Positions 25,308 to 40,802 of a DNA stretch of 56,767 nucleotides are shown piece by piece. The notes under the pieces are model-generated. The model ran no database searches and was not told where the DNA came from. It worked only from the letters and a program-made list of their open reading frames with translations. Position 1 is the first letter of the stretch, and each line of letters starts with the position of its first letter. The stretch comes from a virus (taxonomy: Duplodnaviria > Caudoviricetes), in IMG/VR virus record IMGVR_UViG_3300036717_000095, positions 1 through 56,767 of that record; one strand, 5' to 3'. The position numbers and the translations under genes were made by a program.

Positions 25308-25759
25308 TACGTCTTCCTCCGAGCTTGACTGATCGCGATCGCAACCGCCTGTTTCTGATTCTTTACGACCGGACCTTTTTTCGAACCGCTGTGAAGTGTT
25401 CCAGACTTCCATTCGTCCATCGTCTTTTTGATCTTGGCTTTCGCACGTTTGGTTTTGGGTGCTTTCTTTTTCTTTCCACCCATAGTGCGACCAGCGGCAT
25501 TTGCGGGGATTACTCTTTCACCTTTGTGAACCTTTGCCCATCCCGTCTTCTTGACCTTGCCGCCCTTTTTGAAAGAGACCGGGCGGGCTATCCCTTCTTC
25601 TCCGGAAGGCATCGGTCTGTCACCAAGAGATCCAGGAGTAACGGGCCATGGTGCGCGAATGCTAGGGGTGCGAGGAGCTGGCCTCCCAGAAAAACCCCCA
25701 CCGTATGCTGGGGTGCGAGGAGCTGGCATTCCAGAAAAGGCCCCACCGTATGCTGGCAT
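25307..25759 (-). CDS. basic protein with DUF6496-like C-terminal domain
   Basis: KIKKTMDEWKSGTLHSGSKKGPVVKNQKQAVAIAISQAR; internal KKGG.VKKTG.AKVHKGERVIP; duplicated PAYGG.FSG.PAPRTP at the N-terminus. Confidence 0.7.
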   Translation of the reverse strand: MPAYGGAFSGMPAPRTPAYGGGFSGRPAPRTPSIRAPWPVTPGSLGDRPMPSGEEGIARPVSFKKGGKVKKTGWAKVHKGERVIPANAAGRTMGGKKKKAPKTKRAKAKIKKTMDEWKSGTLHSGSKKGPVVKNQKQAVAIAISQARRKT

Positions 25760-26268
25760 TAGTTGGCTCCTGTAACTATGAATGTGCAGTTCTTACTCGT
25801 GAAGCCAGCAGGAATAGATCCAGAGCTTTTCGGGCAAGCCAGCGTCCCTGTCAACGTGTGGCCAACAGGAGACCACGGAGGGCCTTGGATTCCCTGCTGG
25901 CCTTGAGGTCCTGTGTTGCCTTGCACTCCTTGACTTCCTTGAATTCCTTGAGAACCATTGGTTCCGTTCTGACCAGGAATGCCTTGGATACCCTGCGGGC
26001 CGGTCAAAGAGTGATACGAGCCTCCGTTGTCGCTTTCCTGCAGCATTCCATTCACGATGGTCAAGAGGTACTGACCACTGGTTGGAGGAGTTACTGGTTT
26101 TCCTATGTCGAGAAATACCCATCCGGATTGATTTCCGTTTGGAGCCGCAGTGACGGTAATGGGTCCCGCACAGATCGTCCCCGGAGGGGGACTCGCTTGG
26201 GAACATTGCCCGAGAGCCAGAGTGCTGAATAGCAGAATTGTGCTCAAAACAGGTACGATCGTACTCAT
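25759..26268 (-). CDS. secreted-type protein with collagen Gly-X-Y repeat
   Basis: Signal-like [64 protein letters not shown]; Cys pairs at both ends. Confidence 0.8.
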
Positions 26269-39237: not shown

Positions 39238-39975
39238 TTAATTCGAGAGATATGCTAGAATGATGCTTGTCCAGTTGTTCCAGTTTCCTGTTGTAGTGAG
39301 ACTCGGTAGGTTGACGGTGGTGGTGGCTAAGTAACCCGTCCATACTCGGATACTGTTCGATGTTACTAGTGGGCCTTGAGCGCTTGTATAGCCGCTTGCT
39401 GCTGTGGACCCTGAGGCACCGCTGCTGCAATAGCCGTAGACTAACTCATAGCTTTGCGTTGTATCACTTTGGGCTGTGTTTGAGCAATGATTATTTGCCA
39501 ACACAGTATCGAAATTGCCAGCATCCGCCGCGCCGAATACTGGATACCACCCGGTAGAAGAAGTGAAGGTATCGACAAACAGCATCACACCTCCGGCAGC
39601 TTCCGCATCGGTACAAGTAATGACGTTAGAACCGCCAGACGTAATGACGGTAGAAAATTGGTCATAACTGTTTCTACCATCTGTCCCGCCGAAAGTGCTG
39701 TCGGTCCATGTATTTCCGGCGCTATCGCTTACAACCAAGTTGCCTACTCCTGCATTGTCACCAAAACCCGTACAGGTTGCGATTGATAGTTGACCAATCA
39801 CAGAAGTTATTGTAAGTGTGATCGAAGTGTCGAGGCCATTGTTGTTTCCGCTTTGTGCGGCGTTGTAAACGTAAGTGGGAGGCCCTGCACTATGGTGCGT
39901 GTCATTCGTAATCGACTGGAGCATCTGGGCGTTGAGACAACCAGCCAGCAAGAAAACCGCCAACAATGCTTTCAT
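39238..39975 (-). CDS. secreted-type beta-rich protein (245 aa)
   Basis: MKALLAVFLLAGCLNA|QMLQSI; VSDSAGNTWT motif; start at ATG 39975 coupled to the upstream stop. Confidence 0.75.
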   Translation of the reverse strand: MKALLAVFLLAGCLNAQMLQSITNDTHHSAGPPTYVYNAAQSGNNNGLDTSITLTITSVIGQLSIATCTGFGDNAGVGNLVVSDSAGNTWTDSTFGGTDGRNSYDQFSTVITSGGSNVITCTDAEAAGGVMLFVDTFTSSTGWYPVFGAADAGNFDTVLANNHCSNTAQSDTTQSYELVYGYCSSGASGSTAASGYTSAQGPLVTSNSIRVWTGYLATTTVNLPSLTTTGNWNNWTSIILAYLSN

Positions 39976-40802
39976 TAGTTGGCGATCCAAGTGCCTACGT
40001 AAGACACGGACAGATAGTGAGTCGCGTCACGCCCAAGTAGACATATCTTGTCGCCCACCGCCCCTCCCGAAACGAAGGTTCCCGTGCCCGCCGTGCCATA
40101 GCCGGTTCGAGCGGTGTTCTCGTACAATGCGGAAGATCCGAGAGCGGCCATGGTTATGACCGTGCTTACGTTGTCATCGTTCATGACGCAGAATTCATAG
40201 CCTGCGGCTGGAACGGGAGGAGTTACTGTACAGGTCGTAGTGCAAACAAAGTACCCACGGGGTGCCGTAAGGGTTACTGACGTACCGGTCGTAAGTTTGG
40301 TCGCAAGACTGGACAGAGTACAAGTGCCTGTCGAGGTGATGGTGCAGGTGCCTGAGGTACCGATCTGATTTGCGGTTCCGGCGATGCCAACGGATGACAC
40401 CGTGCCCGATCCGCCGCCTGGGTTGAAGGTGCTGCCGTTCCAAGTTACGGTAACCGAACCCCCGCCTGTTAGAGTCGTCATGTTGATGGCGAGGTAGTTG
40501 AAGACCCCTGAGGTGTAAGATGTCTGACCGGCAGACGTAAAGGTCTGAGTGCTGATCGCACCACCTGCGGTCCAGGTCACTCCATCAGAAGAAGAATCCA
40601 ATTGGACCGCACCGCTCACCGTTCCTGAGGTCGTCCAGGTCAGTTTGCTATAACCGATCCCGGTTCCAGCGATAGAGATAATGCCGCTCGGAGAGGGGTC
40701 CCGGCCCGTGGTGGTAAAGGTATAGGAATGGAAACCAGTCTGCGCCTGCAGTGTTCCGAAGAAGATGCCAAGGAAAACTAACAGGGCCTTTAGCGTTTTC
40801 AT
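39975..40802 (-). CDS. secreted-type fibre-like protein (275 aa)
   Basis: MKTLKALLVFLGIFFGTLQA|QT; GGGSGTVSSV..GT..QI...G..ITSTGT..LS fibre shaft motif; C-terminal YFVCT.TCTVT.P...AG.EFCV...GTWIAN knob. Confidence 0.75.
   Translation of the reverse strand: MKTLKALLVFLGIFFGTLQAQTGFHSYTFTTTGRDPSPSGIISIAGTGIGYSKLTWTTSGTVSGAVQLDSSSDGVTWTAGGAISTQTFTSAGQTSYTSGVFNYLAINMTTLTGGGSVTVTWNGSTFNPGGGSGTVSSVGIAGTANQIGTSGTCTITSTGTCTLSSLATKLTTGTSVTLTAPRGYFVCTTTCTVTPPVPAAGYEFCVMNDDNVSTVITMAALGSSALYENTARTGYGTAGTGTFVSGGAVGDKICLLGRDATHYLSVSYVGTWIAN

Follow-up and report, generated by a model that had tools for sequence, protein, structure and literature searches.

Why would a tailed phage give export leaders to a whole series of fibre- and spike-like proteins? 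Tailed phages assemble in the reducing cytoplasm, and their fibres normally lack signal peptides. The question is posed by a 15-kb block in the virus record IMGVR_UViG_3300036717_000095 (Duplodnaviria; Caudoviricetes), a stretch of 56,767 bases that makes up the whole record and is referred to here as the window. Between the lysin gene (42081 to 42581) and the large terminase gene (22144 to 25149), six minus-strand genes open with a Sec-type leader that is followed by glutamine, as had been noticed in a reading made from the letters alone; the positions that this sequence-only reading gave for them are their start codons. We propose that this block, as an accessory module that moves by horizontal transfer, encodes genuinely exported appendage-type proteins (fibre-, spike- and glycanase-like) that act as free proteins after lysis, and we put the probability of this joint reading at about 0.42. 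Export itself, with cleavage of the leader and oxidative folding in the periplasm, we consider very probable on the strength of the sequence features described below.

The six proteins differ widely in size and build. SP281 (39975 to 40802, minus strand) starts with ATG and has 275 residues from that codon; its leader, MKTLKALLVFLGIFFGTLQA, precedes QT and is followed by a variable Gly/Thr-rich middle and a four-Cys C-terminal domain of about 110 residues. The GTVSSV motif reported earlier for this gene is present. SP250 (39238 to 39975, minus strand; ATG, 245 residues) has the leader MKALLAVFLLAGCLNA in front of QM. SP824 (35379 to 37853, minus strand) starts with TTG, with AGGAG 11 nucleotides upstream; its leader ends in SLPASA before QI, and its body is fibre-like and rich in Gly, Ser and Thr. 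SP361 (34294 to 35379, minus strand; ATG) is Ser-rich, and its leader MKPIVALSLLLTVGLFCGFE ends in LFCGFE before QA. In the giant SP2670 (26268 to 34280, minus strand), a leader ending in VQP precedes Gln, residues of about 200 to 900 belong to a putative pectate-lyase-like beta-helix family, and about 1,750 residues remain. SP169 (25759 to 26268, minus strand; ATG) has a leader that lacks a positive charge and ends in STLALG before QC. The collagen repeat claimed for the block lies in SP169 at residues 90 to 130 and is recognized by Pfam Collagen (PF01391; 34.5 bits, cut-off 27.2; E 1.7e-8); the protein matches tail-fibre PHROGs through this stretch only. Four of the six (SP281, SP250, SP824 and SP361) match no Pfam or PHROG family, and SP250 and SP361 are orphans that have no relative among the fetched loci.

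Are the leaders real? Our calls combine a hydrophobicity heuristic of our own with conservation across homologues. Under one uniform rule (an uncharged 9-residue Kyte-Doolittle window of at least 2.2 near the N-terminus) all six proteins of the cluster pass, compared with 2 of the 26 other late proteins, the lysin and a membrane protein (7977 to 8501). A lysine or arginine stands ahead of the h-region in five of the six, SP169 having none. Small residues occupy positions -3 and -1 at four of the six Gln junctions (LQA-Q, LNA-Q, ASA-Q and ALG-Q), and the AlphaFold2 (AF2) model of SP281 shows leader residues 2 to 21 as a helix. Twin arginines are absent from the leaders of the window proteins. 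The lipobox pattern [LVI][ASTVI][GAS]C is fitted by LLAGC in SP250 and by none of the other five leaders; because of this fit the +1 residue of SP250 could be Cys, and its cysteine parity agrees with both possibilities.

The sequence-only reading had proposed to check whether homologues keep the leader and the glutamine. They do so in the same genomic slot of two related phages and in two large protein families. The slot is the region between a leaderless protein of about 110 residues, p119 (40805 to 41164, minus strand), and the terminase. In the closest relative, G002 (portal 83% identical), it encodes proteins of 627, 1703 and 143 residues, all three with a leader and then Gln, and the 143-residue protein is related to SP169, which occupies the same position. 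In G003 (portal 69% identical) the slot holds five leader-bearing proteins, three of which have Gln after the leader. Between the window, G002 and G003, slot proteins can barely be aligned: their bodies are exchanged and the leader stays. Four other relatives (L008, L011, L012 and L016) have an empty slot, and a single leaderless protein fills it in seven more. The empty slots indicate that the 15-kb block is accessory, an add-on that is probably not essential, and since the slot is dispensable, the core particle of this lineage must carry its receptor-binding function elsewhere.

The cysteines of the six proteins are as abundant and as closely spaced as had been claimed: 134 in 4,544 residues (2.95%), versus 60 in 8,238 (0.73%) in the 26 other late proteins, a fourfold enrichment, with 41 of the 128 gaps between neighbouring cysteines no longer than 12 residues. 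Their number in the mature protein is even in every case (SP281, 6; SP250, 4; SP824, 12; SP361, 12; SP2670, 92; SP169, 4). In four of the six, one cysteine lies in the leader upstream of the junction, and the count becomes even only once the leader is removed. Mature counts are likewise even in 13 of the 14 slot proteins of the window and its relatives (p=0.0009). Proteins that have the C-terminal domain in common with SP281 show the same, with even counts for 101 of the 114 short proteins and 86 of the 105 long ones; the beta-helix alignment shows a weak tendency (54 of 87). As a control, the late proteins of the window that lack a leader and contain at least one Cys comprise 4 with an even and 10 with an odd count. 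Paired cysteines together with a leader are expected of proteins that fold outside the cytoplasm, and disulfide formation in the exported proteins is probable on these counts.

The genes with leaders form part of a single late operon that also contains those for the terminase, the portal and the capsid. TAATG stop-start overlaps join many genes of the block, leader-bearing and leaderless alike (SP281/SP250, p184/p178 and SP169/p150; the leaderless genes are described further below). Consensus scans compared with shuffled sequence gave 6 promoter-like sites in the block where 11.3 were expected and 25 terminator-like sites where 19.1 were expected, so that neither is more frequent than by chance. 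A strong near-consensus sigma-70-like site (TTGACA, 17 nt, TATACT) lies at 44872 to 44844 on the minus strand, at the head of the late arm, where it faces the divergent early arm. The overlaps and the lack of own signals above chance indicate that the six genes are integral parts of the late operon, as opposed to inserted cassettes with signals of their own.

SP281 belongs to a family whose members share the C-terminal domain of about 110 residues, 60 to 85% identical, behind variable bodies rich in Gly, Ser and Thr. We found 307 relatives of 151 to 482 residues (E<=0.01 among 8000 scored) and 214 longer ones of 483 to 2000 residues (E<=1e-5), hence at least 521 proteins. Four cysteines of the domain (C187, C191, C205 and C254) are near-invariant. 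Under one loose rule a leader is present in 96 of the 119 listed short and 104 of the 120 listed long members, and in 70 and 83 of these listed members, respectively, a small residue and then Gln follow the hydrophobic core. The leaderless members are mostly fragments, with non-Met starts or on short contigs. The +1 residue varies within the family; it is mostly Gln, and in others Asp or Ala after an alanine. The domain was not detected in any of 301 sampled Acidobacteriota genomes, which suggests that it is not commonly carried by prophages, and neither this family nor the beta-helix family has a match in 50,697 GenBank phage records.

In the AF2 model of SP281, built from the family alignment, residues of about 165 to 275 have a predicted local distance difference test score (pLDDT) above 90, and the middle is of low confidence. 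An exhaustive structural search with the C-terminal domain returned five top matches that are all phage virion proteins: the N-terminal domains of CBA120 TSP4 (7rej/7rfv; Z 10.8 and 10.3), the Klebsiella phage KP1 baseplate protein (9f4a; Z 10.1), the C-terminus of Solidus tailspike gp83 (24qj; Z 9.2) and the C-terminus of the Pa223 capsid spike (9ny6; Z 9.2). No unrelated chain exceeded Z 5.8, and Foldseek returned the same virion entries. These beta-sandwich domains of tailspikes and baseplates superimpose on the SP281 domain with a root mean square deviation of 2.2 to 4.5 A over 86 to 144 aligned residues at 12 to 16% identity, and neither a signal peptide nor a four-Cys pattern is known to us from the CBA120 TSP4, KP1, Solidus or Pa223 proteins. 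A fold shared with virion domains does not show a shared function. Family members are also found within virion modules. In one locus (L079) the gene has portal, capsid and structural genes on both sides, in another (L078) it follows scaffold and T4-type capsid genes, and in a third (L077) it stands between collagen-like tail-fibre genes, beside three to four more leader-bearing genes. The fibre or spike nature that the sequence-only reading had given to all six proteins is thus supported for SP281, by the fold of its C-terminal domain and the position of its family, and for SP281 only.

The second family is that of the beta-helix region of SP2670. It comprises 1362 cluster representatives at E<=1e-3, its members typically have 620 to 760 residues, and the mature N-terminus is kept from the junction on (Q-x-W-S-G-I...P-S-R-A-x-D-W). 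In the junction column of a 98-row alignment Gln occurs 80 times, Pro 8 times (an offset of one), a gap 7 times and another residue 3 times. The family was found in 63 loci on viral contigs, and 36 of 38 full open reading frames (ORFs) have a leader. The earlier assignment of a beta-helix has indirect support at the level of the family, through weak Pfam matches among 18 members (Beta_helix 4, Pect-lyase_RHGA_epim 3 with a best E of 1.8e-6, Chondroitinase_B 1); SP2670 itself has no Pfam match at E<=0.01 and only a row at chance level. Neither family profile has a significant match among the PDB sequences. The beta-helix profile gave only a 33-residue exopolygalacturonase match (E 0.0026), and the sequences of SP824 and SP2670 gave chance-level matches only.

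SP824 is connected with this family through its C-terminus. Its whole-protein database matches number only three, itself included; its C-terminal 100 or so residues match seven other viral loci, each time in large proteins encoded just upstream of beta-helix genes. This recurrence suggests that the pair travels together between phages. SP824 also shares a 107-residue segment with a leader-bearing protein of 1469 residues in G003. On other viral contigs, too, three to five genes with leaders stand in a row (L077, 2974 to 14376; L109, 324 to 8282; L132, 210 to 7386). In L087, L091, L102 and L109 the beta-helix gene directly precedes an ORF of about 170 to 195 residues whose product, judged by eye, resembles a lipobox-bearing lipoprotein, and the clusters of L091 and L132 lie near genes read by eye as putative lysis genes.

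The beta-helix also has cellular relatives, in 3 of the 301 sampled Acidobacteriota genomes. The best match is to residues 2077 to 2621 of a leader-bearing protein of 2918 residues (G246 contig C23, 10237 to 18993, minus strand; L183 and L184), whose gene has as neighbours those for a UDP-glucose dehydrogenase, an epimerase, two GT2 glycosyltransferases, a hexapeptide transferase and a Wza-like exporter (Poly_export and SLBB). The location of this relative in a locus for polysaccharide synthesis and export points to exopolysaccharide as the substrate.

Which host would export these proteins? Among the GenBank phage records a single relative was found, Tunturiibacter phage Tunturi_3, a podovirus (32% portal identity), and genome-borne relatives occur in metagenome-assembled genomes (MAGs) of Ca. 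Sulfotelmatobacter (61%) and of a member of the Bryobacteraceae (41%). Tunturiibacter, Ca. Sulfotelmatobacter and Bryobacteraceae all belong to the Acidobacteriota, and because of these phage and MAG relatives the host is most likely an acidobacterium. Glutamine at +1 is the substrate of periplasmic glutaminyl cyclase, and the sequence-only reading had connected the junctions with the Q-rule of Bacteroidetes. In that form the link is not supported, since the relatives point to a phylum that was not surveyed in the Q-rule paper: there the rule is a feature of Bacteroidetes, and the word 'Acidobacteria' does not occur in the main text (PMC5837995). In the accessible text of a follow-up paper the rule is said not to apply to other phyla. 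Another part of the earlier interpretation, Sec export with oxidative folding, is supported by leader conservation and even cysteine counts.

Gln follows the leader in six of six proteins in the window, three of three in G002 and three of five in G003. In a host survey with a crude cleavage rule, which is blind to the +1 residue and misplaces some sites, Gln was found at +1 of 17 of 54 leaders in the Ca. Sulfotelmatobacter MAG (611 kb, G006; L033-L072) and of 10 of 30 in the Bryobacteraceae MAG (394 kb, G007; L147-L178). It is the commonest +1 residue in both (31-33%), against a background of 3.9% Gln. The same rule applied to 150 kb of Escherichia coli K-12 gave 3 of 14; this control is too small, and with only 14 sites the Gln bias cannot be called phylum-specific. 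Relative to a host rate of one-third, the phage proteins are enriched in Gln (six of six, p about 0.001; 12 of 14 across the three phages, p about 7e-5); relative to a looser host estimate of 56% the enrichment is marginal. Of 201 sampled Acidobacteriota genomes, 54 encode a plant-type glutaminyl cyclase (PF05096); this family was found in the Bryobacteraceae MAG and not in that of Ca. Sulfotelmatobacter. A literature search for Acidobacteria together with glutaminyl cyclase returned nothing relevant. A Q-rule-like Gln bias may exist outside Bacteroidetes.

We hypothesize that the proteins would be made late, from one operon with the virion genes, that Sec would carry them across the inner membrane, and that signal peptidase I would remove the leader, mostly exposing Gln. 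They would then fold in the periplasm with all cysteines in disulfides, and the exposed Gln may be converted to pyroglutamate. By eye, no PEP-CTERM or autotransporter-type sorting signal was seen in the six C-termini; because no outer-membrane sorting signal is visible, the proteins would be released at lysis. Once freed, they may act on the surface polysaccharide of the host: as binding and depolymerising proteins they would strip or cover exopolysaccharide and receptors in the surroundings of the burst cell, independently of the virion.

What favours such free action over attachment to the particle? To our knowledge, no phage protein with a signal peptide has been described as a virion component. 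The slot is dispensable, no conserved partner accompanies the families, and the cellular relative lies in an exopolysaccharide locus. The high conservation of the C-terminal domain across unrelated phages suggests a host ligand and not a phage partner. A precedent is WceF of Pantoea stewartii, described in the accessible text as an exported, trimeric, tailspike-like right-handed beta-helix that cuts the exopolysaccharide of its own producer (PMC7949094). The likeness extends to the acidobacterial relative of the window beta-helix, which is also encoded in a polysaccharide locus. Compared by description only, WceF differs in being chromosomal and exported in folded form by the twin-arginine translocation (Tat) pathway, whereas the window proteins are phage-encoded, Sec-type and Cys-rich. 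On these grounds we lean, tentatively, towards free action after lysis.

Several observations weigh against this reading. The high-score matches of the C-terminal domain are virion proteins only, and family members are embedded in the virion modules of unrelated phages (L077, L078 and L079). Gly/Ser/Thr-rich shafts and a collagen repeat are needs of attached fibres, not of free enzymes. SP281 has its N-terminal part and middle in common with G003_269, which comes first in the slot of G003 (E 2e-6), and the C-terminal domains of the two are swapped, the usual pattern of virion receptor-binding proteins. The beta-helix region of SP2670 has no Pfam match of its own. Finally, the residue at -1 is non-canonical at two of the six junctions, GFE-Q in SP361 and VQP-Q in SP2670; the exact cleavage site of SP361 is uncertain for this reason, while the Gln of SP2670 aligns with the conserved junction Gln of the beta-helix family.

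The fold matches (Z 9.2-10.8), the virion modules, the fibre-like composition and the SP281/G003_269 pair are what would be seen if the exported, disulfide-folded fibres and spikes docked at lysis on particles built in the cytoplasm, as accessory receptor-binding or depolymerising appendages. The stop-start overlaps that link leader-bearing with leaderless genes, and the position of the fibre-like p178 directly before SP824, would suit docking as well, and particles in T4 lysates can take up fibres and decoration proteins. However, apart from the SP281/G003_269 pair no N-terminus is conserved when the slots of the window, G002 and G003 are compared, so that a common N-terminal anchor is missing in spite of portal identities of 69-83%. 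The leaderless neighbours were considered as partners of the exported families and rejected, since none of the leaderless window proteins recurs beside either family in 41 other viral loci (38 with the beta-helix and 3 with the C-terminal domain). Four relatives have nothing in the slot, and the signal-anchor-like N-terminus of the lysin may hint at lysis that proceeds without large early membrane holes. A full-text literature search, which covered neither subscription journals nor supplementary files, returned no paper in which phage proteins that resemble tail fibres or tailspikes are exported, and we know of no precedent for the docking of exported fibres on virions. We regard docking as a serious possibility that is less probable than free action. 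A bolder generalization, by which many tailed phages of diderm soil bacteria would make part of their virions along a second route through the periplasm (Sec export, disulfide-locking, Gln-capping and addition at lysis) with the two families as its first markers, is in our view less likely than not.

The hydrophobic N-termini might also stay uncleaved. The proteins would then either fold in the cytoplasm and become part of the virion by the normal route, with disulfide formation after release, or be held by these segments as membrane anchors until lysis, in analogy to signal-anchor-release endolysins. The uncharged n-region of SP169 and the E or P at -1 in SP361 and SP2670 agree with this, and even cysteine counts could arise by oxidation outside the cell. 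Nevertheless, four of the six leaders of the window, and those of most family members, have the classical n-h-c organization with small residues at -3 and -1, and a leader persists across more than 500 members while its sequence diverges freely. The varying +1 residue would fit adaptation to the peptidases of different hosts. In addition, the four proteins with a cysteine upstream of the junction reach even parity only without it. Retention of the leader is hence improbable, and export with cleavage of the leader remains the reading that we prefer.

A role of the six as moron-like genes, encoding adhesins or superinfection exclusion factors that decorate or convert the surface of the infected or lysogenic cell, in the manner of morons beside tail-fibre genes and of the signal-peptide proteins Lom and Bor of lambda and Llp of T5, would suit the variable and dispensable slot and an ORF of another contig (L132) read by eye as an integrase from its N-terminus, but is very improbable for a block of 15 kb (26% of the genome) whose genes are tightly coupled in a late operon without promoters or terminators of their own above chance, with no outer-membrane targeting signal visible by eye at the C-termini, no integrase noticed among the window ORFs (no search was aimed at integrases) and the C-terminal domain in none of the 301 Acidobacteriota genomes.

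How does the block compare with known systems? Signal-anchor-release endolysins, T5 Llp and lambda Lom and Bor all use the host Sec machinery during infection, and they are small lysis or exclusion proteins. The lysin of the window has a signal-anchor-like N-terminus; the leader cluster, in contrast, is multi-gene and fibre- or spike-like. The phage proteins with signal peptides that we know of are small lysis, exclusion or conversion factors. PblA and PblB of Streptococcus mitis phage SM1 are tail-fibre-like, act away from the virion on the bacterial surface and exit by lysis; unlike the window proteins they are not known to have signal peptides, and their host is Gram-positive. The nearest published case is a set of five prophage genes of unassigned function in Porphyromonas gingivalis, whose products are described as Q-rule proteins (PMC10367356, and again PMC10653852, in the accessible parts of both). 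Like the window proteins, they have phage-encoded Sec leaders whose predicted cleavage exposes Gln, which was read as an adaptation to host secretion, and their secretion would also be in keeping with a role at the cell surface. In contrast to this set from Bacteroidetes, the window proteins probably belong to a phage of Acidobacteriota, are fibre- or spike-like and up to 2670 residues long, extend over 15 kb and have families of hundreds. Phage-encoded secreted proteins and phage appendage proteins are both known kinds, and the combination seen here is best filed as a variant.

The two leaderless genes that had been described as interleaved with the leader genes, at 37831 to 38367 and 40805 to 41164, do exist, as putative adaptors. 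The latter encodes p119, a small, Cys-free protein that is conserved in all relatives (n=18) and after which the variable slot starts. Its domain forms the C-terminus of larger leaderless relatives, at residues 205 to 310 of a 312-residue protein in L019 and at residues 731 to 828 of an 830-residue protein in L009, and its nearest Atlas clusters are all viral and without a named family. In L019 the gene for the larger protein (4395 to 5333) adjoins a stand-alone copy; the counterpart in L009 is at 5126 to 7618. The other gene (37831 to 38367, minus strand) encodes p178, also leaderless and Cys-free, with about 100 conserved N-terminal residues and a variable C-terminus. This N-terminal domain recurs in two G002 proteins of 190 residues and 204 residues (beside head genes) and in a 344-residue protein of L025. 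The layout would resemble the anchor-plus-variable-tip organization of a fibre, and the Atlas look-up for p178 gave weak tail-protein leads only. The preceding gene encodes p184 (38367 to 38921, minus strand), a leaderless, charged protein that is conserved in G002 and L025 and matches no Pfam or PHROG family. A grouping, made by eye, of SP250, SP361, G003_251 and leaderless proteins of 312 (L019), 317 (L030) and 256 residues (L077) into one jelly-roll family was rejected, as it had no phmmer support.

Lys-rich proteins recur at the edge of the slot and within it. A protein of 102 residues (38921 to 39229, minus strand) has its real start at MANDRVKG, 9 nucleotides past the SP250 stop codon, and similar Lys-rich proteins occur in relatives. 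The Lys-rich p150 (25307 to 25759, minus strand; DUF6496, E 1.8e-9), encoded just upstream of the terminase, is found in 13 relatives and marks the end of the variable slot. Small, very Lys-rich proteins are thus a feature of the late operon upstream of the terminase, with up to four to five copies in relatives (L007, L008, L009, L012, L020 and L022); a role in DNA binding, or packaging into the particle, is possible for them. The block is headed by p201 (41337 to 41942, minus strand), a conserved leaderless protein with counterparts in 12 relatives, 85% identical to that of G002 and duplicated in some relatives. It has an N-terminus of similar type (MAN/MNFNT...) to that of p223 (15025 to 15696, minus strand), from the head-tail region, and both are duplicated in other phages; the two may be paralogous small structural proteins.

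The rest of the genome consists of two gene arms. The early arm lies on the plus strand and runs from about 45.7 kb across the end of the record to 2.1 kb; the late arm is a single long minus-strand series from about 44.9 kb down to 2.5 kb. Its order is small genes and a tRNA-Met, lysin, leader block, large terminase, portal, scaffold-like protein and head protein, followed by an SU10-type adaptor, a Thr/Ser-rich protein of 1006 residues and helical, Cys-free proteins of 658 and 730 residues, which we take as ejection proteins. The portal matches the SU10 type (E 8.9e-20); for the major head protein the family is phrog_1357. This gene order indicates the layout of a short-tailed phage. The lysin, which bounds the leader block on one side, is encoded on the minus strand and is SleB-like (Hydrolase_2; 27.9 bits, cut-off 27). 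Its N-terminus has a signal-anchor-like hydrophobic segment, MIRSLLALLLCLSLVPYY, with no clear cleavage site, which suggests an endolysin of the signal-anchor-release type. On the other side, the terminase (minus strand; Terminase_6C, 1001 residues) contains an insertion of about 347 residues (residues of about 135 to 481, ending in THN before S) that is absent from the 652-residue terminase of G002. With a weak LAGLIDADG_3 match, the insertion looks like an intein with a homing endonuclease.

Conserved export leaders on fibre- or spike-type proteins of up to 2670 residues, in a quarter of a phage genome, run against textbook expectation. Hundreds of uncultured phages have this design, which was found in none of the searched records of cultured phages. 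It raises the question of whether the preference for Gln after the leader extends beyond Bacteroidetes. Whatever the fate of the proteins, two unannotated protein families are now defined and can serve as markers. There is a real chance that the block marks a new route of virion assembly. If the proteins do reach the virion, such a route would explain how soil phages come by oxidation-hardened appendages. If they act freely, they would represent a new class of phage-secreted agents directed at the exopolysaccharide of a dominant soil phylum.

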